A DNA stretch of 64,000 bases from the NCBI GenBank assembly GCA_001662655.1, contig KV460224.1; one strand, given 5' to 3'. Within the stretch, counting starts at the first letter, position 1, and each line of letters starts with the position of its first letter. A program made the translations under genes and the position numbers. The DNA is from Pseudogymnoascus verrucosus. Lineage: Eukaryota. The notes below the pieces were generated by a model. That model worked only from the letters and a program-made list of their open reading frames with translations, made no database searches and had not been told where the DNA came from. Shown piece by piece: positions 9,646 through 41,385 of the stretch.

Positions 9646-10427
9646 AGCGATGAATGAACACAATTGGATATTGGATGGGAAGATCTGAGCCCAGATGAGT
9701 CTCTGTTTGTGTGCACTCTCACTAAGAGCTAAGTAGGTGCAGCTGTGTCATCCTGGTCCTCGTGGCTACCACGTTGGGCGCATGATGTCGGTGGATTAAA
9801 AATTATTTGCTGCGTATACTAGTATACTACAATAGCCATATGGGAGCCATATTAGACAAGCAATCCCATATTAAACAAGCAATTAAATAAATTAAAGCCC
9901 GCAGTTGGTTGGCTCTAAGATCTACCATTTTCTCACCCAGGTTGCATGGATGATTGTGGATGATTGCGGGTGATTGTGGTGCTCACCCAATAAAATGCCA
10001 CAGACAGTCGGCAGTCGCTATAAAAACGCGCGCAATGAACCTCACACTCCTGTAAAACTTGCTCAATTCCTCTCTTACCCCATACTACTATCCCTTGAAA
10101 TACTGTATTAACCCTAGAGATTAATCTTGAGGCTAGAATAATGGTGCCGGTTTCCGTTTCTTTTGGGAACACTTGCCACATCATGGTAGCACGACAGTGC
10201 TTGTTGGTACAGATAAGTATGGCCACGCCCAACATCTACCAGCTTGGTGGAGGGTCCATTCGAGCTGGTGATAATCCTCATACACATGGACCGACAAGGA
10301 GCTGGCACTCTCATGTATATATTTGGAAGTTAAAACAGCGTGAACAACCGCTCCGGAAGCTCTTCGAAGGAGGTTGCGCGCACTTCATTTACTTTCTTCA
10401 GTCGAACGACGAACAAACTCGCCCACC

Positions 10428-12955
10428 ATGCATGCTGCTATCCCCTTCTTTGTGTTGTCTCTGTCTGGCATCATCCAGAATGGATGTTCAGCAGAGAGTG
10501 GTATCATGGGCTTTGGCCTGTCCTTGTACCAGGACCTCTGCTGCCAGACTTGTCACGACTCTCTCTCCGCCCTTTATCTGAATTGCACTACATTCCCCGA
10601 AGACGATAACATGGACATGGATATGTCAATGGATATGGGTATGGATATGTCCATGGACACGATGCCGATGACGAGCGAGGAGTGCTATGCTACCAATATC
10701 CCTTGGCTCCAGACGATGGCATACTGCATCCAACAGAACTGCAATGCCGACGGGTACAGCGCCGACAAACAGGCCAAATGCTTCAGCACTCAAGCAGTTG
10801 CGGGTGCGTCAGAGCCGACTTTCCAGGACAGTTTGCCTGCCAAGGCTCCGACGGTCGAGCTCTCAGAGGATGCAATGTGGCTCAATACCACTAGCTTGGT
10901 CAATGGGAACACCTACAGCGCCATACATGGCACCCTGAAGGAATTCACAAGACAGGAATATATGCACACGAGATATTCGTACGTTCTTCCACCCTGTGTT
11001 GTTAATTTATATATCTTCCCCGGGCGTGAAGCTCACATATAATTTTCAGGGTGATACTCCTATTCATAGTCCTTGGCATCTGCATAGGCGGAGGCATTCT
11101 GGCGCAGACCACGAGCGCATCCCTCGGATTTCAAACAAAGCTACATGCCTCCACTCTCTGGAGCAAGTTTCAGCAGCACATCTTCTTGCCGGCTTTATTC
11201 GGGTCTCGGCGCCTCGAACCTCTCCCGGGGAATGTGGGCTACGTGCCAAGCCGGACGCTCACCATATTTATCACCATCTTCGTGATTCTGAATATAATCC
11301 TCTCGTCCGTTTCTTACCGCACCTCTCAGCCAAATACCTGGTTCAAATCTGGTCAATTCGAACTATGCGAGTACGTCGGGAATCGCACGGGCACTCTGAG
11401 CTTGGTCAATATGTGTATTTCCATCTTGTTCGCGGGCCGAAATAATCTCTTGATTGCTTGGACCGGATGGAACCAGACGGCTTTCTTAACTTTGCATCGC
11501 TGGACGGCGAGGGTGGCTGCGCTGCAGGCGGTTGTCCATTCGATTGCATATACACTGGCATATTTCGAGCCGGGATATGGTGGAGCGGCGGAGTATGCTG
11601 TTGAAGCAGCGATGCCTTTCTATGTATGTTGTCCAACCTCTGTTTCATTGTACTCCCTTTGATCAACGATATTTGTACTTGGGGGATTTACTGACACGTT
11701 TTAGTTTTGGGGGATTATCGGAACAATAGCGCTTTGTCTCGCAGCAGGCTTTGCAATCCTGCCCATTCGCATCAGATCCTATGAATTCTTCCTCATAACT
11801 CACATCATCTTCGTCATTATCGCCCTGGTTGGATGCTGGTACCACCTTGTCCCCCACTTCGGATATGTCTTTGGCTATCAAACATGGCTTTACATCGCCT
11901 TTGCCTTTTGGGGTGCCGACCGATTCGCCAGACTTGCTCGCGTGGCCTACTACAATCGCCTCAGTGGTTCAACGGCGATCATTGAAGCAATCCCCGACTG
12001 CGATATCATGCAAGTCACTGTTTTCCCACGTGCTGCTTGGGACTTTGGTCCCGGACAGCACAGCTTTATTTACCTGGCTGGACTGGGTAAGTTCTGGGAA
12101 AGCCATCCATTCAGTATTGCGGCTTGGAAGGGACAGTCATCAACCACTATAACTTCGACTTCGAACCTTCTTTCTTCTCCCATCGCTCGTTCCGACACCG
12201 CCACCAGAGAAGAGGAGGCGAAAGATCCAGGCGTTATATCATTGGGTTCGAAACCGAACTCGACGACAACGCTTCCGGAAACCCACGCAGAGGGCAAAGC
12301 ATATATTCGATTCCTCATCCGTGTACATTCCGGTATGACTTCCACGCTGCAGCGCCGCCTATTATCCTCGCCTTCTCGCGCTAGCCTGGAAACATCTGTC
12401 TATACCGAGGGGCCCTATGCAGGCCACAAAGCAACCCTCCAGCCACTCTTTATCGCCGACACTGTTCTCTGTATTGTTGGCGGCATTGGTATCACGAACA
12501 TCCTTGGATTCGTCCAAGAATACTCAAGCGCGAACCGTCGCGGAGGTGAAACGTCGAAAAATGGTCAGAGGATCATGAAGAAGGCCAAGCGGTTTATACT
12601 CGCCTGGTCCGCGAGAGAAAAAGCTCTCATCAAACACGTGAAGCAGAACTTCCTTCTCCCGAAAGATGAGGTTGACGGGATCGAGTATTCGTTCTGGTGC
12701 ACGGCTGAGCCAAAGGTGGACGATGTACATGAGGAGAGCCAGAAAGACGATAGTGCAGCTCAGCTAACGTCGGCTATAATAGCAGGGAGAATGGATATCA
12801 GGACAGTGATGAGATCCCATGTGGAAACGGGTCAACAGACGACGGTGATGGTGTGTGGTCCTGGTAATATGGCGGATGAAGCCACGAGGCAGATTATCGA
12901 TTGCGTGAAGGACGGATTTAAGGTGAATTTACTTGAAGAGTCCTATACCTGGTAG
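10428..12955 (+). CDS. Ferric/cupric-chelate reductase (FRE family) with Cys-rich, Met-rich N-terminal ectodomain
   Basis: Signal peptide; introns 10979-11049 and 11624-11704. Heme His pairs (LHRW..VVHS; THI..WYH), HPFS FAD motif, EGPY, GGIGIT, CGP, and C-terminal EESYTW. Confidence 0.92.
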
Positions 12956-13417
12956 TTTCTGTCGTTTGTAACACCGAGTTTTGTTACTTTAGCTGGCGCG
13001 GGTTGTCAACGGGACTCATTTTGTAGGGAGCAACATTTTCCAATTGAGGAGGGATTAAGATTTGATACCATTTGAGATTATACGAATATATTTGCAAACA
13101 AACACAATTATCCTATCTTTTATCTAGAGACTATTTTCGATGCGAGCAATATTTGTGCTCTATCTGTCATGATCGGCATGTCGTGCATGATTCGAAAGGG
13201 AACGAGGCATATCGAGCACATTAAGTTACCCCACTTAAATAGTTTGCAGTCCAACCAGGTTACAACCCACCATATTTTTGATCAACACCCATAAACCCAG
13301 CCATTTAGTGAGCTGTTTATCTTTTTTGGTTGTGGAATGGCTTTTTACTTTCGCTGCCCGATACTTTACTCGTTGGGCTTTGCTGTGTTTGTCGAGACCT
13401 AGGGTGTAAAGTCTGAT

Positions 13418-15148
13418 ATGCCACCTCCACTTGACTCAAAGAATTCATCATGGGAGTCCACGCCTACCATCTTTCAGCAGGGCGATGCAGAGAAAGGGCA
13501 AGTTGAAGGAAGTTCCAATTCTTACGTTGATGGGAACAACGAAAAGGACGAAAATGATGGCGCAAATACTCCACCATTATCAAATTGGAAAAATGAGAGC
13601 GATGGCGACGTGCCAGCCGAGCTAGACTCTGGGTTCATTGTATGGTGGGATGGGCCAGACGATCCAGAAAACCCCATGAATTGGTCGTCGAGTTGGAAAT
13701 GGGTCAATATCTGTGTTATTTCTGTGATTAGTTTCATCGTGTGAGTGCAATTCGCGACAACTGATAAGTGGGTATACTCGAGCAACAACTAAACCCCAAC
13801 AGTCCCCTCGTCTCCTCCATGATGGCACCAGGCGTCCAGCTCGTAATGGAAGACTTCGAGACCAGTTCCCCCACATTCGCAACTTTCGTTGTATCTATAT
13901 TCGTGCTCGGCTTCGCCTGCGGACCACTCATCCTCGCCCCATTGAGCGAGCTTTATGGCCGGGTGGTCATCTACAATACCACTAATTTGTTCTTCCTCGC
14001 CTTCACCATTCTCTGCGCCGTTTCACAAAACCCGTCTATGCTCCTGGCGTTCCGTTTTCTATCGGGGTTTGCGGGTGTGGCTACCATCACGATCGGATCG
14101 GGGACTATTGCGGATATCATGCCGAGGGAGAAGAGGGGGAAAGCTATGTCGATTTGGTCCGTAGGACCGATTCTTGGACCGATGGTTGGGCCGATTATTG
14201 GGGGGAATGTGGCTGAGGTTGCTGGTTGGAGGTGGATGTTTTGGACTATTTCGATTGTTGTGAGTTCACCAGAGTAAAGTAGCCGGACGGGCGCTGTGTA
14301 CTGATCATTACTAGATTGCTGTTGTAACTATTGCCGCATTCCTCGTCCTCAAAGAGACCTACCCCGTGGTATTACTCGAGAGAAAAGCATCTAAACTCCG
14401 AAAGGTCACTGGAAACCCAAACCACAAATCCAGACTCGCCTCCGACCTCACCCCCAAGAAACTCTTCAAACACAGCATTATCCGCCCCCTAAAAATGCTC
14501 GTCCTCTGTCCCATAGTCACAGTAATGTGCATCTACGTCGCAATCCTCTATGGTATACTATACCTCCTCTTCGCGACCTACTCCTTCGTCTTCCGCCAAA
14601 TCTACGATTTCACAACCGCATCAACCGGCCTCGTCTTCCTCGCCGGCGGACTAGGGACCTTGATAGGTCTCTTCTACGTCGGTTACTTCAGCGATAGAAC
14701 ACTCGTCAAGCGTGCAGCCGCGGGAAAGACAATAGCCCCCGAAGACCGCCTCCCATTCATAATCACCATCCCAGGGTCCCTCACATTCCCCATCGGTCTA
14801 TTCATCTACGGCTGGACGGCTGAAGAACACGTCCACTGGATTGTCCCGCAGATTGGAACGGCGATCACGGGTTTTGGCTCCATCTTGATCTTTGTAGGCA
14901 TCCAAACGTACCTCGTTGATGCATTCGAAGAGTACGCCGCTAGCGTCATTGGTGCAAATGCGGTGCTGAGAGGGACTGCTGGGGCGTTGATTCCGCTTGC
15001 GGGGCTGAGAATGTATGATGGCCTCGGATGGGGGTGGGGGAATAGTTTGCTAGCATTCGTGGCTCTGGCATTTGCTCCGATGCCGTGGGTATTTGGGGTG
15101 TATGGAGCAAGGATAAGGGGTTGGAAAGGGAGCAAGGTCAAATTATGA
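13418..15148 (+). CDS. MFS transporter, drug:H+ antiporter DHA1 family
   Basis: [47 protein letters not shown] motifs. Introns 13741-13802 and 14260-14314. Confidence 0.93.
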
Positions 15149-15211
15149 TATTAGATTTATGTTTGACAAATAATAAAATGAAGTTTTTAAATATTTTTGT
15201 TGTTATTTTTT

Positions 15212-16285
15212 TTATTGTGTTTGAGGAACGCCAAATCTCTCAATAAGCTCGCTCCGCGAAAGATGTTCCAAATTCAACTTCTGCAAATTCCTTCCCGTCT
15301 TCATGTAATCAGCCCCCGATGCCATTTCCGCAAGTGTGATAACAGCCTTAATAGGCGAGGCATCTATCCCCAGCTTCTCCGCCAGACCACACCAGAACAC
15401 CAACAAATCTGGCACATCCTCTGAGATATTCCTATTGTCCATAGTTGGTGGAGCTTTCAACTTATTATGCGGTGGCGAATTCTGCGCCAGGTCCACTAGG
15501 TCGGTGAAAGTCTGATTGTAGCACTTATTCGACGTCTGTGTCACACCGTCGAGCTTGAACCCAAAAGCTTCCCCGATCTCGAGCCGCACCCTGTCAACAG
15601 CGAGCATTGCGTTGGCCACCGAACGTGTCAGCCCATCGTGGTATAATAAGAATTCCCCAGATGTGCTTTCGATCCGGCCAGCGTTCATCAACATCATCAG
15701 AGGGTGGAACACCCCGTTTATATTCGACAGGCAGACTTCAATGACGTTGTGACACCATTTTAGTTCCATAGGAAATATCCGTTGGATCTCGGCGGTAAAT
15801 GAGGGGTTGGAAGAGGTTTGTAAGGCGGCGATGAGGAAGAGATTCTTCTTTCCCATGACGGCTAGCTCCCCTTCCTTCATCCGGCATGAGTATGGTGATA
15901 GGTTTGTTTCGAGGATTGATCCAATCTTCATCTCGGCATCGGCGACGAGAGAGAATAAATTGCCTGGAACTGCAATAACAGTGTGCTGTCGGAGATCAAA
16001 CTGCTTAAACTCCCGCAATACAGTCTCCTGTCCTGTAGACGGCACAGTGAGGATGATGATTTTTGAGAACTCAATGACCTCGGCCATGTCGAATGTGACG
16101 CGAAGAGTAGTAGAACCTTCGATTTTTCCAGTAGCTCGAAGACATCCGTTTTCGACGACATAATTGGCGTGTCGTACATGTGTGGGATGTGAATATACCA
16201 ATACGTTTGTCCCGCGAGAGTCGAGGTCGGCGGCGAGTGCGAATCCAGCGGGGCCGGCGCCGACAATGGAGACCCTTAACTGCAT
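15212..16285 (-). CDS. Opine dehydrogenase family (NAD/NADP octopine/nopaline dehydrogenase-like), intronless
   Basis: Rossmann VSIVGAGPAG at the N-terminus (ATG 16285). SNINGVFHPLMMLMNAGRIE (catalytic His) and RNISEDVP (catalytic Asp) match the Arthrobacter CENDH/octopine dehydrogenase pattern; C-terminal TGRNL..L. Confidence 0.88.
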   Translation of the reverse strand: MQLRVSIVGAGPAGFALAADLDSRGTNVLVYSHPTHVRHANYVVENGCLRATGKIEGSTTLRVTFDMAEVIEFSKIIILTVPSTGQETVLREFKQFDLRQHTVIAVPGNLFSLVADAEMKIGSILETNLSPYSCRMKEGELAVMGKKNLFLIAALQTSSNPSFTAEIQRIFPMELKWCHNVIEVCLSNINGVFHPLMMLMNAGRIESTSGEFLLYHDGLTRSVANAMLAVDRVRLEIGEAFGFKLDGVTQTSNKCYNQTFTDLVDLAQNSPPHNKLKAPPTMDNRNISEDVPDLLVFWCGLAEKLGIDASPIKAVITLAEMASGADYMKTGRNLQKLNLEHLSRSELIERFGVPQTQ

Positions 16286-17012
16286 ATTTGTGAGTGTGTT
16301 GATGTGGTGCTCGAGTGTGTCTGTGAGATTGGTTTGTATATTGTTTATCTTGATGTTGTTATCTTTTAAACAGGGGTGATTCCGTTTATAAATGAGAATG
16401 GGCGATTCACTTTTCCAGGGAATGATATGTGAGTAAAGGCGTGATATGACATTTGCCCCTTCCATAGCTACTCACCCCAACTTTAATATATGTGAATACT
16501 TTACTTTCGGAGTGATTGTGTTGATCAATCTATGTTGGCGGATCACTTATGCGCCAGGAACGGGCAGGTTACTGGCCATAGGCTGCAAGCTTGAGCATGT
16601 TTGCTCCATTTAAATGTGGCTTTTCATGATGATCACCTGCGGAAAAGCGAATGCCGGCCACCCTGGAGGCTTCTCGGCATCAGGTCTAGCTAGCAAGGCA
16701 ACTCTACTTTGGTGTCATCAGCATCTTATTTATCTCACAAGGTAGCTGATACCTTGATGCTGTCCCTCTTATTTTCTCTTCGTATTGCGATAATTCACGG
16801 CTCGGCGCGACAAGGGAGCGGGAGTATGTTTGAGAGTACTGGAGCTGCACAATGCCACGTAGCGCGAGATGAGCATATTATACTGCTGGGCGTATTGCAC
16901 GTAGTGTAATTGCTTGGCTAGAGTTTTAAAAGGCCAATATTGTTATTTCTGGTGGCACAAATTAAAAACTCGGAGGGTGTTGTGGATTATTTTTATAAAT
17001 CTAATGACCCCC

Positions 17013-17789
17013 TTACTTCGTGGCCACCGTGACCAACAACTCCATATCCATCTTAATCCCCTCCTCCGTAGTAATCCTGGCCCATTCCACCTTCATCTCC
17101 TCCCTTGCTTGCGGCCTCAAGTCCAGAGGAATCCCTCCGTATGTCTTCCCCGACGAACTCGTATCCAACCATTCAATCATAGCAGCCCCATCCTTCGCCT
17201 CCTTGACAATAGTATTCACCACAATCTCCCTCTTCTCCAACCCCGCCGCATCAAGCAGACCCTCTATCTCACTTCTCTTCAGGAACTTCGGCCCGCTCGT
17301 TATGGGATACTTGCGGTACGGCTCTCGCGAGAGTACATCCGCCTTGATCTTTTCGTGCGCTGCCTCAAAATCGCCGGATCCCCCTGAAATCCCAACACGT
17401 CCCCCAGACTTCAGCACACGCGCGAATTCTTTCATTGCGGTCGCCTGGTCCTCCACCCAGTGGAACGTAGAGTTCACAAACACCACATCAATGCTGTTGG
17501 ACTCGAAACGTGAGAGGTCCTCGGCGCGGCCAACGTAGAATGAGAGATTTGGTGTGGCGATCTCGTTTGCGAGGGCGATGCGCTCTTTGCTTGGATCGAT
17601 GCCAACAACACTGCCGCTGGGGCCAACAATGCTAGCAATGTGTGCGGTGATATCGCCGGGGCCGCAGCCGACGTCAAGGATGTTGTTTCCGGTGGTGATG
17701 TTCAGTCTTTTGAGGAGGAATTTACCAGCGTCGTATTGGGTGCCGTTGAGAGCTGTGTAGCCTTTTGCTAATTCTTCGGTGTCGGCCAT
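17013..17789 (-). CDS. Class I SAM-dependent methyltransferase, intronless
   Basis: Motif I ILDVGCGPG, VGIDPS, DVVFVNSTFHWV, RVLKSGG. Confidence 0.9.
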   Translation of the reverse strand: MADTEELAKGYTALNGTQYDAGKFLLKRLNITTGNNILDVGCGPGDITAHIASIVGPSGSVVGIDPSKERIALANEIATPNLSFYVGRAEDLSRFESNSIDVVFVNSTFHWVEDQATAMKEFARVLKSGGRVGISGGSGDFEAAHEKIKADVLSREPYRKYPITSGPKFLKRSEIEGLLDAAGLEKREIVVNTIVKEAKDGAAMIEWLDTSSSGKTYGGIPLDLRPQAREEMKVEWARITTEEGIKMDMELLVTVATK

Positions 17790-17920
17790 AGCTGAATTGG
17801 TATGATGTGAGCGTGCTCTGGAGGTGATTTTCAGGTCTGCTTGGGCTGATTGCTCTTGGTATTATTTGGTCTCTGCGGGTGATAGTTACGGATATTATTT
17901 TGTGGTCTCCTGATAGAAAC

Positions 17921-17928
17921 TGAGCAAA
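17921..17928 (-). promoter_or_regulatory. Mac1-type copper-response element (TTTGCTCA)
   Basis: TGAGCAAA on + equals TTTGCTCA on -, an exact S. cerevisiae CuRE consensus, ~130 bp upstream of the methyltransferase ATG. Confidence 0.5.
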
Positions 17929-18077
17929 TACCTGAGCCCGCAGTCTTATACTTCTGCCATGGATTCACTCGAGAACTATTGAAGTGCATCGATTGTGAAT
18001 TAGTGATACCCCTGCCGCTATTCAAAAATTAAATACACCCCATGCCCTGGTACCTGCAGCCCCTGGAGTACCTTAAT

Positions 18078-18119
18078 TGTGCTCAAAGTCGCGCGGACAT
18101 GTGAGGTACTTTGAGCACA
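18078..18119. promoter_or_regulatory. 12-bp inverted repeat made of two Mac1-type CuREs (TGTGCTCA...TGAGCACA) in the divergent methyltransferase/P450 promoter
   Basis: TGTGCTCAAAGT-N18-ACTTTGAGCACA, perfect arms. TGTGCTCA is the motif reported for Aspergillus fumigatus Mac1. Confidence 0.62.
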
Positions 18120-18708
18120 TTGATTGATTATTCGCAATTCCTATCAGAGCTCGGATAAACGCCGATCGAATATGCTAAGCACGAACAATAACCTCAGTAG
18201 GGACAAATAGACCAAATACAGTACAAATTAATAAAGGGGACAGATTCATCTTTACAAACTCGGGATAATGCTCGTAATACCTTAAATTCACTGGCAATCT
18301 ACCTTGGTTGTTAGGGTCAACCTTGAGGGCATATTCTTACGATCTTTGCCTGCCAAGGTAAGCTTTGGATGTCGAGCATATCTACCCAGGTATATCGTCG
18401 TGGATCTTACTTGTAGCGCCAAGGTTACAGAGCACGTATTTTGTATGCATTGTGCAGTTTCAAGAAGAAGGTCAGCCAGTATAACTACCAAGGTGCTTTA
18501 TATAGACTCATAACTTGGTAGATATGCTTATACTGAACCCGTAAGGTTTGTCGAAGTCTCACAGCTTATTCCAACATTACCGGAGCCACGAGCTTAGCAG
18601 GTACAACATCATAATTAATCCCTGATTCAGAAAATCAATTGGAAGCGCACAAACTCACTTTATGGATAGTTGGATATTTCTGAAATTTGCTTCATATAAT
18701 CACTAGTG

Positions 18709-20396
18709 ATGATCAGTCAATTCTCTGTGGCGTCAATAGCCACGACAGCTGCTCTCCTCGTGAGTTAATCACTTAGATTTGAGAAATCTTGCTCATTATC
18801 ACTAGGTCGTTGCTGCCCTTCTGCTCCAGATCATCCAGAGGCTTTTCTTTCACCCTCTTCGCTCAGCCCCCGGACCATGGGCAAACAGAGTTTCTGATAT
18901 TCCTGCCACCATTGCTTTGGTCACGGGAAACCAGCACACATACTACAGGTCATTGCACGAAAAATATGGCCCAATCGTGCGAGTCTCCCCCGGAGAACTC
19001 AGCTTCGTCAGTGTTGAAGCACGGGAAGAAATTTACGGTCTACGAGTAAGTTAAGCCCCAAATAAACAAAATCCGAGCTAATCAACCCGTAGAAAGGTGG
19101 TCTGAACATGGAAAAGAGTGCTATCTTCCTCGGAGCCGTGGGCAGTGTCGAGGGTCAGACTGGAGTGAGTCTGGCTCTCAATGCAGAACACACTCGCCAG
19201 CGTAGGGCATTGGGTTACCTATTCACGAACACGGCGTTACTCCAGCATGAAAGCTTACTTCGACTCCATGTTAATAAGCTGGTTGCCGTACTCAAGAAAA
19301 AGGCAGCTGCAAACCAGCCCGTGGACGTCTCAAGTTGGTGTAAGCCACCCCCAATCATCACTTCCCACGATCACCTAACTAATAACATACAGTCACCTAC
19401 ATCTCCTTTGATGTAATGGGCGACCTCTGCTTCGCCGAACCCTTCGGCTGCCTCGACCAGGCCTCAGCAACAGAATGGTCCACTTCGGTCATCAACGTCT
19501 TCATAGCCGCCACCTGGACCCAAGGAATCCGCCGCCTCTGCGGCGTAGGCACCCTTCTCGAGTCCCTCGCAACCAAACTACTCGTCCCCGCCAAAGCCGC
19601 ACAATGGCGAAACACCCACCTCAACAACTCACGGGAGAAGACAGCAAAACGTCTCGCAGACGGAGACCGTGAACACACAGATTTCATCTACCAGATCCTC
19701 AAACACAATGAAGCCAAGAACTCCCTTTCAGACACAGAAATCAAACTCAACATGGCCCTCTTCATCAGTGCTGGCACGGACACAACAGCCACCACTCTAA
19801 CGGGGTGGACATACTACATCTGCACTCACCCCACCGTTTACGCACGTGTCGTATCTGAGATCCGCTCCGCCATCCCAGACGCAGAAGACATCAAGTGGGA
19901 AAACGTCCGAAACCTCCGCTATCTTGAAGCAACCATCCACGAAGCGCTCCGCCTCTTTCCGCCCTCGGGTGCGAGCCAGCAGCGCATCGTCCCCCGTGGC
20001 GGCGCGACGATCGATGGCTTCTACGTCCCAGCCGGCACGACCGTTGCTGTCTCCCCATGGGCATCAACGCGTTCAAAACTAAATTTCCATGACCCTGACG
20101 ATTTTAGGCCCGAGCGGTGGCTCAGCGAGGGAGAGGAATACGCGAATGACCGACTCGGTGCATCGTTACCATTCGGCACTGGACCGAGAGTGTGCATTGG
20201 GCGGAACCTGGCGTATATGGAGATGCGGCTTGTAGCGGCACATTTGCTGTGGAGTTTTGACATGGCGATTGATCGGGGGAGGTATGAGGGAGAGAATAGT
20301 GCCTGGGGGTTTGAGAGGAGGATGAAAACGCAGAAAGTGTTTCACTCTATGACGAAGCCGGAGTTGTGGGTGGGGTTGAAGGAGGTTGACCGGTGA
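18709..20396 (+). CDS. Cytochrome P450 (secondary-metabolism type, resembles the Tri11/CYP65-like group)
   Basis: N-terminal TM then HPLRSAPGP; I-helix AGTDTT, EALR, PERW, heme FGTGPRVCIG. Introns 18760-18805, ~19046-19092 and ~19339-19392. Confidence 0.93.
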
Positions 20397-23803: not shown

Positions 23804-23888
23804 CCATTCAGCTCCTATGAGCCTCATAGGAGCTGAATGGCTACTCTTCGTACATGTCCTCATACTATGAGGACATGTACGAAGAGTA
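23804..23888. repeat. Two adjacent perfect palindromes (18-bp and 23-bp arms, 1-nt centres)
   Basis: CCATTCAGCTCCTATGAG-C-CTCATAGGAGCTGAATGG (23804-23840) and TACTCTTCGTACATGTCCTCATA-C-TATGAGGACATGTACGAAGAGTA (23842-23888). Confidence 0.95.
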
Positions 23889-41076: not shown

Positions 41077-41385
41077 CTATATCTTGAACGTGAAATCACA
41101 GGCCAAGTATGTCCCTCCATAATTGGAAGACAGAATAATCTGCCAAACTACAAGGAGCCCATTAGACTCGACCACAAAGTCGAGTCTAATGGGCTCCTTG
41201 AACGAAGGTGCAACTTTATTCGCTTTTATTAAGTGGTTTGGACAGTAGCTGCGGGAGGGGATTCGTTTTTCATCAGTGGTGCTACACTGAAGAACGGATT
41301 GGACCTCATATCTCTCGTCACATTGACGGAATTCGCCCTTCTGGACGTATCCGCACGTGTAGAGATATAAATCGCGAGAGCACAT
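41077..41385 (-). CDS. Small Cys-rich hypothetical protein (MC..Y.CG..C..C..C..H pattern); 3' end uncertain
   Basis: ATG ORF MCSRDLYLYTCGY...RQCD...QC...YCPNH, a spacing I associate with small fungal proteins; not confirmed. Confidence 0.4.
   Translation of the reverse strand: MCSRDLYLYTCGYVQKGEFRQCDERYEVQSVLQCSTTDEKRIPSRSYCPNHLIKANKVAPSFKEPIRLDFVVESNGLLVVWQIILSSNYGGTYLACDFTFKI

Follow-up and report, generated by a model that had tools for sequence, protein, structure and literature searches.

A candidate Mac1-type copper-starvation element in the divergent promoter of a five-gene opine dehydrogenase module of Pseudogymnoascus verrucosus

Copper-responsive gene clusters and their cis-elements

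Among described systems, the CRC of P. destructans (VC83_01834-01838) offers the most direct comparison for the locus considered here: it consists of adjacent genes for a metalloreductase, an MFS transporter, an opine dehydrogenase, a SAM-utilising enzyme and a cytochrome P450, whose transcripts rise on treatment with the chelator BCS and fall with copper (PMC12113139). At the level of the proteome, copper withholding raises PdSAM more than 70-fold and PdOpDH 20-fold, with log2FC values of 2.83 for the reductase and 1.44 for the P450 (PMC13208438). The words “promoter” and “motif” are absent from both reports, indicating that the articles themselves do not describe cis-elements. “Mac1” has no occurrence in PMC13208438 and seven in PMC12113139, which are general or belong to the reference list in those parts of the text where their context is displayed. 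A literature search returned no description of a cis-element at this cluster, the P. destructans studies being the only relevant ones among the matches listed.

Two further types of cluster invite comparison on account of their regulation or their enzymes. The isocyanide cluster termed crm (copper-responsive metabolite), found in A. fumigatus and F. oxysporum, is, going by the excerpted reports, likewise a biosynthetic cluster that is switched on by copper starvation via Mac1/MacA sites in its promoters; however, its enzymes are unrelated, being of the isocyanide synthase-NRPS-like type as against the opine dehydrogenase and class-I methyltransferase of the present locus. To our knowledge, the copper carriers known from fungi are all isocyanides (the xan and crm clusters), and expression data from the bat pathogen P. 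destructans are the sole basis on which an opine-based copper-carrier route has been put forward to date. The bacterial cnt operons (staphylopine, pseudopaline, yersinopine) resemble the present locus in grouping an opine dehydrogenase with a SAM-using enzyme and an exporter, all controlled by metal starvation. In those operons, CntL is a nicotianamine-synthase-like aminobutyryl transferase, a type of enzyme that is not matched here, where the SAM enzyme is instead a class-I methyltransferase. Further, the bacterial cnt systems respond to zinc through Zur, whereas a response to copper through a copper-fist factor is proposed for the present locus. The analogy between the CRC and the bacterial opine metallophores has been drawn previously (PMC12113139).

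With respect to the cis-elements themselves, the motif of A. fumigatus MacA is given as TGTGCTCA (review PMC6514546), and the ChIP-seq consensus of F. oxysporum Mac1 is DHNTGCTCANNN, with a TGCTCA core and a free 3' flank (PMC11563359). According to the same excerpted report, F. oxysporum Mac1 binds only without copper, and its sites include the shared promoters of divergent gene pairs as well as the crm biosynthetic cluster. In Histoplasma, full induction of CTR3 needs several elements, which lie on both strands between -273 and -176; however, TCTGCTC[A/G] is also found at copper-regulated genes that are independent of Mac1, for which the authors suspect the paralogue AceI (PMC9040751). Hence, sequence alone does not settle which copper-fist factor binds such a word. 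Taken together with TTTGCTCA of S. cerevisiae and C. albicans, these ascomycete Mac1/MacA CuREs share with the elements described below a GCTCA/TGCTCA core with an A/T-rich 5' flank, a position about 180-330 bp upstream of the ATG, the presence of several cores per promoter, and a location in the shared promoters of divergent pairs and beside FRE reductase genes. Additionally, yeast Mac1 follows a paired-site rule in the CTR1 and FRE1 promoters. The direct activation of the crm cluster by F. oxysporum Mac1, in the excerpted account, proceeds without a pathway-specific regulator, which is a further likeness; however, the opine dehydrogenase/methyltransferase/P450 module is not among the 16 targets which that excerpt lists.

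The gene module and the inverted pair in its divergent promoter

The window, i.e., the whole analysed stretch of 64,000 nucleotides from contig KV460224.1 of Pseudogymnoascus verrucosus, holds all five families of the P. destructans CRC in adjacent genes at 10428-20396, as established by Pfam matches. These are a FRE-type metalloreductase with several exons (10428-12955, plus strand), an MFS transporter (13418-15148, plus strand), an opine (octopine/nopaline-type) dehydrogenase (P0002; 15212-16465, minus strand; PF02317, 4.1e-49), a class-I SAM-dependent methyltransferase of 258 aa (P0001; 17013-17789, minus strand; Methyltransf_11, 2.9e-23) and a cytochrome P450 with several exons (18709-20396, plus strand). 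The first exon of the P450 gene spans 18709-18759, its ATG at 18709 having been assigned by eye from the sequence; exon 2 starts at 18806, and the exon at 19386-20396 matches PF00067 (1.3e-61). The composition is like that of the CRC, with the methyltransferase corresponding to PdSAM by family and position, and orthology to VC83_01834-01838 is understood here as shared family composition and adjacency rather than as the outcome of protein sequence comparison. Among the 120 matches listed of 346 methyltransferase homologues, none is a Pseudogymnoascus entry.

Inspection of the individual proteins shows that the methyltransferase matches only class-I methyltransferase families in Pfam and methyltransferase structures in the PDB, and that no ORF scanned in the window matches the nicotianamine-synthase family. 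The sole PDB relative of the opine dehydrogenase by sequence is the carboxyethyl-norvaline dehydrogenase 1bg6 (1.5e-25). Among the 34 large ORFs scanned, none has a transcription-factor domain, in keeping with the lack of a local transcription factor noted in the original prediction. Beyond the window, the reductase, MFS, opine dehydrogenase, methyltransferase and P450 families are linked in at least 20 metagenome loci, among which gene order and orientation vary between lineages and the P450 is in several cases (L008, L012, L016 and L030) missing on the upstream side of the methyltransferase. The closest methyltransferases to those of the loci come from both Leotiomycetes (Phialocephala, 94%; Cadophora, 92%) and Sordariomycetes (Staphylotrichum, 89-90%; Coniochaeta, 100%). 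Both Sordariomycete- and Leotiomycete-like fungi have thus conserved the five-gene module.

The methyltransferase and P450 genes diverge from an intergenic promoter region of 919 bp (17790-18708), orthologous regions being about 500-720 bp long by our own estimate. This region contains an inverted repeat with arms of 12 nt that are 100% complementary: the P450-facing arm, TGTGCTCAAAGT, lies on the plus strand at 18078-18089, and the methyltransferase-facing arm at 18108-18119 reads ACTTTGAGCACA on the plus strand and TGTGCTCAAAGT on the minus strand, or AATGTGCTCAAAGTACCTC with its flanks. The arms are separated by an 18-nt spacer (CGCGCGGACATGTGAGGT, 18090-18107), and their two TGCTCA cores (18080-18085 in the P450-facing arm and 18117-18112 in the methyltransferase-facing arm) start 32 bp apart. 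The methyltransferase-facing arm is placed at approximately -330 relative to the ATG of the methyltransferase, with some 590 bp between it and that of the P450. A third site at 17921-17928 (TGAGCAAA on the plus strand, TTTGCTCA on the minus strand) is directed toward the methyltransferase gene at about -139. It is preceded, on the minus strand, by a conserved TATAAGAC (17943-17950, about -160), which is a candidate TATA box of that gene and is identical in L001. Thus, the sequence bears out the three elements that had been reported, together with their placement in a bidirectional methyltransferase/P450 promoter.

The resemblance to the A. fumigatus Mac1 motif that had been claimed for the arms also holds, as both read TGTGCTCA; with their flanks they read ATGTGCTCAAAG and TTGTGCTCAAAG, which fit the F. 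oxysporum consensus DHNTGCTCANNN too. We consider it likely that the inverted repeat comprises two Mac1-type (copper-fist family) copper-response elements with the core TGCTCA in the shared upstream region of the divergent pair of the five-gene module, to which Mac1 would bind and of which both arms would act. This proposal takes the connection between motif and Mac1, and the copper response of P. destructans, from the papers cited above, and combines them with the sequence, conservation, strand bias and synteny established in the present analysis.

Conservation of the element across orthologous promoters

Within the window, the counts of these words are at expectation: TGTGCTCA occurs 3 times against 2.56 expected (3 being reached in 49 of 100 shuffles), TTTGCTCA twice against 2.57, and the hexamer TGCTCA 36 times against 40.8. 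This lack of window-wide enrichment led to the rejection of window-only statistics as a basis for the copper-element claim. Further, perfect inverted repeats with 12-nt arms and a spacer of up to 50 nt are expected 0.275 times per shuffled window, at least one being present in 18% of 200 shuffles, and the same window harbours three other perfect inverted repeats, all of them longer and without a known meaning. Hence, the inverted repeat taken alone is only mildly unusual. Such counts, along with the selection of the motif after the sequence had been seen, are what would be anticipated if all the sites were short promoter words that arose by chance and lacked regulatory meaning. That this is so seems exceedingly improbable, however, given that comparison across promoters contradicts it for the methyltransferase-facing arm on the counts of k-mer ranking, density and strand; it is conservation in orthologous promoters that takes the element beyond chance.

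For the comparison, 500 bp preceding the methyltransferase ATG were taken from each of 21 non-redundant promoters, namely that of the window and those of 20 of 32 metagenome loci, with the other 12 excluded as near-identical duplicates (8), as having less than 300 bp upstream (2) or as lacking the 5' end (2). In an unbiased scan of these promoters, the most over-represented 8-mer by a wide margin was TGCTCAAA, found on the gene strand in 16 of the 21 as against 0.27 expected and a maximum of 5 for any 8-mer over 150 dinucleotide shuffle sets, these k-mer statistics being inflated by relatedness among the promoters. By our own grouping, the motif is spread over 9 of 13 similarity groups of promoters. 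Its density points in the same direction, with 17 occurrences in 10,349 bp of promoter and 18 in the remaining 237,365 bp of these loci, a 21.7-fold enrichment (Poisson p 2e-17), and its orientation is strongly biased, with 16 of the 17 promoter occurrences lying on the gene strand.

The orthologous elements take the form AA[T/C]NTGCTCAAA at -170 to -358 in 16 of the 21 promoters; the conserved word extends in the 3' direction to TGCTCAAA and is followed by CTC 4-5 nt further on. The methyltransferase-facing arm has in common with them the flanking AA and T as well as the downstream CTC (alignment A2). The promoters are otherwise barely alignable, and the blastn islands between them are centred on the element. 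The methyltransferase-facing arm is the conserved orthologue of the TGCTCAAA element. Five promoters (L013, L020, L021, L022 and L032) lack TGCTCAAA, some of them carrying the variants AGCTCAAA or TCTGCTCA. Additionally, in several lineages the conserved element is accompanied by another GCTC-type core close by, in a geometry that varies between them. A lack of conservation in orthologous promoters had been named among the outcomes that would refute the original prediction, and the result differs between its sites: the methyltransferase-facing arm is represented in 16 of 21 promoters, whereas the P450-facing arm is found in one, that of the window, and the site at 17921 is not conserved.

Several features of the conserved word could be accommodated by a factor other than Mac1, be it AceA/AceI (its high-copper paralogue), CufA or some regulator unrelated to these, in which case the cluster would not be a direct target of Mac1. 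Apart from the Mac1-independent Histoplasma genes mentioned above, these include the variants AATCTGCTCA and AACCTGCTCA in several orthologues, a TGACTCA-like word after the element in some lineages, and the conserved 3' AAA and later CTC, which, like the extension to TGCTCAAA, lie outside the published Mac1 consensus sequences compared, as given in the excerpted reports. Nevertheless, such an assignment appears unlikely to us, since the matching cluster of P. destructans is raised without copper and lowered in excess, which is the pattern of Mac1 and not that of AceA (PMC12113139, PMC13208438), and since all elements fit the F. oxysporum Mac1 core TGCTCA with its free 3' flank (PMC11563359, as excerpted). 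The element is probably a Mac1-type copper-starvation element, a candidate recognised by its sequence at what would be a new target.

The second arm and the third site

In contrast to its partner, the P450-facing arm is the sole opposite-strand copy among the 17 occurrences of TGCTCAAA in the 21 promoters, indicating that it is lineage-specific, and it lacks the downstream CTC context of the orthologues, one coincident C aside. The inverted pair had been predicted as a unit, and as a conserved unit it is not borne out, orthologues being found only for the methyltransferase-facing arm. Being unique to the lineage of the window among these promoters, the second arm may be a neutral duplication. 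One could envisage that only the methyltransferase-facing arm is functional and that the inverted repeat reflects a recent and neutral local inverted duplication which left the P450-facing arm idle; this would be in line with the P450 showing the weakest copper response within the P. destructans cluster (PMC13208438) and with its lack upstream of the methyltransferase in the four loci named above.

We regard an idle second arm as a genuine but doubtful possibility in light of the closer relatives and of other promoters. Reads of four relatives (X2-X5) were compared, with complete substitution lists for X2 and X3, and the stretch 18068-18175 carries no substitution in either X2 (9 in total) or X3 (32 in total), which leaves the two arms intact; in a contig of X4, which is more divergent, 18024-18167 is still alignable while the flanks on both sides have been replaced. 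Further, the recurrence of a second core near the element in other geometries, and the multiple elements that full induction of Histoplasma CTR3 needs (PMC9040751), run counter to a single working arm. A block of five ZafA-type zinc-response cores (CAAGGT) was also observed on the P450 side of the promoter (18301-18494); this cluster is not conserved in the 20 orthologous promoters, and two of its cores are altered in close relatives.

An altogether different role for the inverted repeat would be structural, whether as a hairpin formed in RNA, within a non-coding transcript or a long 5' UTR, as a DNA cruciform or as the remnant of a small mobile element. Indeed, a 76-nt stretch folds to -24.7 kcal/mol (z = -3.2), and none of 200 shuffles folds as well. 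However, stable folding is to be expected of every perfect inverted repeat with arms of 12 nt, and the fold energy therefore adds no independent evidence. Moreover, the orthologues keep only one arm, meaning that a hairpin is not conserved; 17700-18800 has no Rfam match at E values up to 1, and the arm has no further copy in the window. A structural role is accordingly judged very improbable, and two copper-response elements continue to be the favoured interpretation of the repeat.

As for the 17921 site, the supporting TTTGCTCA of the original prediction reads TTTATCCA in L001, the closest relative outside the species group, with the flanks kept, and the stretch 17789-17940 is replaced in X4. 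This pattern makes a conserved function of the site improbable.

Related blocks and the proposed copper regulon

TGCTCA-containing blocks that had been overlooked previously are present in two other promoters of the cluster. The opine dehydrogenase promoter has a conserved near-palindromic block, GGAGCAAACATGCTCAAGC, on the minus strand at 16589-16607; of the 13 orthologous promoters, 8 carry AAA[C/T][T/A]TGCTCA and L032 has a further, degenerate copy, and the top 8-mers are GAGCAAAC (7 of 13) and CTTGCTCA (6 of 13). The reductase promoter has the 13-mer AAACTTGCTCAAT on the plus strand at 10055-10067, -373 from the ATG at 10428, which is shared by all three reductase promoters compared (the window, L002 and L006), along with an additional GTGCTCA at 9979-9985. 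As TATAAAAA occurs 35 nt upstream of the reductase-promoter element, the latter may be located close to where transcription begins. By our own arithmetic, 7 of the 36 TGCTCA sites in the window fall within 4.1 kb of cluster promoters as compared with about 2.3 expected, and all seven are oriented toward the gene they precede.

Extrapolating from published Mac1 behaviour, scarce copper would leave Mac1 free to bind the TGCTCA elements and turn transcription on, whereas there would be no Mac1 binding when copper is sufficient. The methyltransferase-facing arm at 18108-18119, in its extended form AATGTGCTCAAAGTACCTC, would represent the ancestral element, and the P450-facing arm a young inverted duplicate of this lineage that supplies a second core. 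Elsewhere, this second core could be provided by GAGCTC or TGCTCA about 10 nt downstream, or by CTTGCTCA about 50 nt downstream. The TGCTCA blocks upstream of the opine dehydrogenase and the reductase could extend this control to the other genes, with no need for a cluster-specific regulator. The locus may thereby offer a case of binding-site turnover, with one anchor long conserved and its partner variously replaced, here by inverted duplication.

The spread of the module, the putative Mac1-type element that is deeply conserved at a fixed position upstream of its most strongly induced gene and the related blocks elsewhere make the proposal of an opine route testable, and they offer a regulatory hypothesis of direct control by Mac1 without a pathway regulator. 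Copper chelation or a promoter-reporter could serve as an inexpensive means of activating the cluster in the search for its product. The element had been regarded as independent regulatory support for the idea of a metallophore; it does support copper regulation, but it is silent on metallophore chemistry, the methyltransferase being an ordinary class-I enzyme. A broader conjecture, which we put forward tentatively and hold to be rather improbable as a whole, is that the module is an ancient and widely retained copper-starvation regulon of filamentous ascomycetes that makes and recycles an opine-type copper carrier. It would be wired directly to Mac1 by a composite of AAYNTGCTCAAA and a second core, with turnover of the second core between lineages, in this case by inverted duplication, and the gain of the five ZafA-type cores would have brought joint control by copper and zinc. 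The order of induction in P. destructans parallels the strength of element conservation seen here.

An inverted repeat in the methyltransferase/P450 promoter

The three elements of the original prediction, an inverted pair and a further site, all lie inside the 919-bp intergenic region of the divergent methyltransferase and P450 genes, and their sequences and coordinates are borne out. The P450-facing arm, read from the sequence, is TGTGCTCAAAGT (18078-18089, plus strand), and the methyltransferase-facing arm is its exact reverse complement (18108-18119, minus strand), with the two 12-nt arms of this inverted repeat (I4) separated by an 18-nt spacer. The third site, recovered by an octamer search, is TGAGCAAA, i.e., TTTGCTCA on the minus strand (17921-17928, minus strand). 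The methyltransferase (P0001; 17013-17789, minus strand) is a class-I SAM enzyme of 258 aa matching Methyltransf_11 at 2.9e-23, and the P450 gene (18709-20396, plus strand) has its ATG, as read from the sequence, at 18709, an intron at 18760-18805 and a main exon matching PF00067 at 1.3e-61.

Judged from window statistics alone, this finding is weak. The window contains 3 copies of TGTGCTCA (2.56 expected), 2 of TTTGCTCA (2.57 expected) and 36 of TGCTCA (40.8 expected), and shuffled windows yield 0.275 perfect inverted repeats each, with 12-nt arms and a spacer of up to 50 nt. These counts agree with the reading under which everything is chance, whereas the orthologous promoters considered below speak against it. 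A structural role for the repeat is an unlikely alternative: Rfam gives no match, and the fold of -24.7 kcal/mol is trivial for a perfect repeat. The window also contains three other, longer perfect inverted repeats (23804-23840, 23842-23888 and 41151-41200), whose arms measure about 18-23 nt and whose loops are short; the first two adjoin each other downstream of a lipase gene.

Conservation of the element in orthologous promoters

Proteins with 69-78% identity to the methyltransferase occur in Diaporthe, Colletotrichum, Phialocephala, Cadophora, Lophiostoma, Sticta and others (among the 120 listed of 346 matches). A search with an alignment of 34 of these homologues (A1) recovered 32 metagenome loci (L001-L032), which by nearest named methyltransferase include Leotiomycete-like and Sordariomycete-like genomes. 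Eight near-identical duplicates (L004, L005, L007, L014, L017, L023, L025, L031), two loci with less than 300 bp upstream (L001, L010) and two without the 5' end (L027, L029) were left out, giving 21 promoters with the window counted in. These are barely alignable with one another, and the few blastn islands are centred on the element.

Every 6-, 7- and 8-mer in the 500 bp preceding the ATG was ranked against 150 dinucleotide-preserving shuffle sets. The top 8-mer, TGCTCAAA, occurs on the gene strand in 16 of the 21 promoters as against 0.27 expected, with the maximum for any 8-mer in the 150 shuffle sets being 5. Hence, phylogenetic footprinting, put forward with the original prediction as a check, finds the motif conserved and ranked first. 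The 10,349 bp of promoters hold 17 copies, 16 of them on the gene strand, versus 18 in the remaining 237,365 bp of the same loci (21.7-fold, Poisson p 2e-17). In the orthologous promoters the element lies at -170 to -358 and has the extended form AA[T/C]N-TGCTCAAA, often with CTC after 4-5 nt. In the alignment of promoter elements (A2) the GCTCAAA columns are invariant by selection, and the informative conserved columns are two A's, the T preceding GCTC and the downstream C. The 8-mer is missing from five promoters (L013, L020, L021, L022, L032): L022 has AGCTCAAA at a similar place in lieu of it, L020 has TCTGCTCA and CTTGCTCA, and in L013/14 it is the opine dehydrogenase promoter that carries an element, TGTGCTCAAAG.

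The methyltransferase-facing arm, AATGTGCTCAAAGTACCTC on the minus strand, shares its flanks with the orthologues in A2 and, judging from this comparison, is the ancestral element. The P450-facing arm is the sole opposite-strand TGCTCAAA in the 21 promoters and is thus specific to the lineage of the window. What is conserved is therefore the methyltransferase-facing arm and not the predicted inverted pair as a unit. Yeast CTR1 and FRE1 carry paired elements. Other lineages have a second core in different arrangements: TGCTCAAAAGAGCTC in L002, L006 and L009, TGCTCAAAAATGCTCA in L008, CTTGCTCA 50-57 nt downstream in L011, L012, L026, L028 and L020, and a divergent pair in L015. The P450-facing arm could be a neutral duplicate. 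Four close relatives (X2-X5) were compared over 17400-19000, with differences listed in full for X2 and X3 and in smaller part for X4 and X5. X2 differs by 9 substitutions and X3 by 32, none falling in 18068-18175 in either, and in a more divergent X4 contig 18024-18167 is alignable with 13 differences, the flanks on both sides being replaced.

The third site, predicted as a further element, is probably not functional. In L001, whose methyltransferase is 93% identical to that of the window, it is altered to TTTATCCA while the adjacent TATAAGAC and TTTCTATCAG are unchanged; it also lies between the TATA-like word kept there and the methyltransferase ATG. The first ~50 contig bases of this locus (L001:1-55) are unalignable to the window and resemble a sequencing adapter that was retained during assembly. 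The 5' flank of the core shows natural variation between L006 and L007, whose promoters are 99.7% identical: at -262, inside the element, they carry TTTGCTCA and TTCGCTCA, respectively.

The gene module and a candidate copper-responsive factor

Pfam scans of 34 large ORFs, with further searches, add a FRE-type metalloreductase (10428-12955, plus strand), an MFS transporter (13418-15148, plus strand) and an opine dehydrogenase (15212-16465, minus strand; PF02317, 4.1e-49); Pfam matched no transcription-factor domain among the 34 large ORFs. By tblastn, the five-gene module is linked in most of the 32 loci but rearranged between lineages. The methyltransferase and P450 genes are divergent in L002, L003, L006, L009, L014, L018, L020 and L028, an MFS gene takes the place of the P450 in L016 and L030/31, and neither lies within 6 kb at that place in L008 and L012. 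In most loci the reductase and opine dehydrogenase genes are arranged in tandem. L011, L012, L015, L018, L019 and L024 have a further element, GCTCAAAT, on the opposite strand upstream of the MFS gene, 130-290 bp past the end of the methyltransferase reading frame.

Related elements occur at other promoters of the cluster. AAA[C/T][T/A]TGCTCA is present on the gene strand in 8 of 13 opine dehydrogenase promoters, with a degenerate copy in L032, usually within a near-palindrome GAGCAAAC-TTGCTCA. The block GAGCAAAC[T/A]TGCTCA, common to the window (GGAGCAAACATGCTCAAGC, 16607-16589, minus strand), L008, L012, L014, L016, L020 and L024, comprises two TTGCTC half-sites that abut, one on each strand; it is a conserved inverted pair such as had been predicted, but in another promoter. 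All three available reductase promoters contain AAACTTGCTCAAT (window copy 10055-10067); since it is preceded at 35 nt by TATAAAAA (10019-10067), the role of this element is less clear, and it may sit near the transcription start rather than upstream of it. The cluster promoters, 4.1 kb in total, contain seven of the 36 TGCTCA sites of the window, each oriented to the downstream gene.

The A. fumigatus motif invoked in the original prediction agrees with a review, which gives MacA as binding TGTGCTCA in copper transporter gene promoters (PMC6514546). In a F. oxysporum study, Mac1 binds only without copper, with the ChIP-seq consensus DHNTGCTCANNN, at 12 sites for 16 genes, mainly in clusters and shared divergent promoters and including the crm biosynthetic cluster (PMC11563359). 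All elements found here match this consensus. Less probably, a different copper-fist or an unrelated factor binds the element instead. A Histoplasma study cautions that TCTGCTC[A/G] is found at Mac1-independent copper-regulated genes, and reports that full induction of CTR3 requires several elements on both strands between -273 and -176 (PMC9040751).

The five families match the composition of the P. destructans cluster VC83_01834-01838, from which we infer orthology. The chelator BCS induces the P. destructans cluster and copper represses it (PMC12113139), behavior that fits Mac1 and not AceA. At the protein level, copper withholding gives increases of >70-fold for the SAM enzyme PdSAM and 20-fold for the opine dehydrogenase PdOpDH, with log2FC of 2.83 for the reductase and 1.44 for the P450 (PMC13208438). 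Under low copper, a Mac1 orthologue would bind the conserved element, ~170 bp upstream of the putative methyltransferase TATA, and also the duplicated arm, whose core starts 32 bp from the first core, thereby activating both divergent genes; related elements would drive the genes for the opine dehydrogenase and the reductase, and copper-loaded Mac1 would leave the element, a step taken from the cited papers.

As support for a metallophore, the use to which the original prediction put it, the element supports copper control but not the chemistry of a metallophore. Pfam and PDB relatives place the SAM enzyme among ordinary class-I methyltransferases, and the sole PDB sequence relative of the opine dehydrogenase is carboxyethyl-norvaline dehydrogenase, so that the analogy with bacterial cnt operons is loose. 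Both the motif family and the response of this module to copper have been published; conserved cis-elements at the module were not found in print in a literature search and both P. destructans papers (PMC12113139 and PMC13208438), from whose main texts the words "promoter" and "motif" are absent.

Zinc-type cores on the P450 side

On its P450 side the promoter has five CAAGGT/ACCTTG cores in a stretch of 190 bp (18301, 18320, 18354, 18420 and 18489; block 18297-18528), which belong to a repeated unit CTACCWWGGT. The zinc-response motif of A. fumigatus ZafA is DYYVYCARGGTVYYY, with the essential core CAAGGT (PMC6070888), and ACTACCAAGGTGCTT at 18484-18498 matches it at 15 of 15 positions. The block is not conserved, with 0-3 cores per promoter in 20 orthologous promoters, and may represent a lineage-specific zinc input, or chance. 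The opine dehydrogenase promoter has two further CAAGGT-type cores (16738-16756). Among the close relatives, G18358 is replaced by A in all four and T18324 by C in X3.
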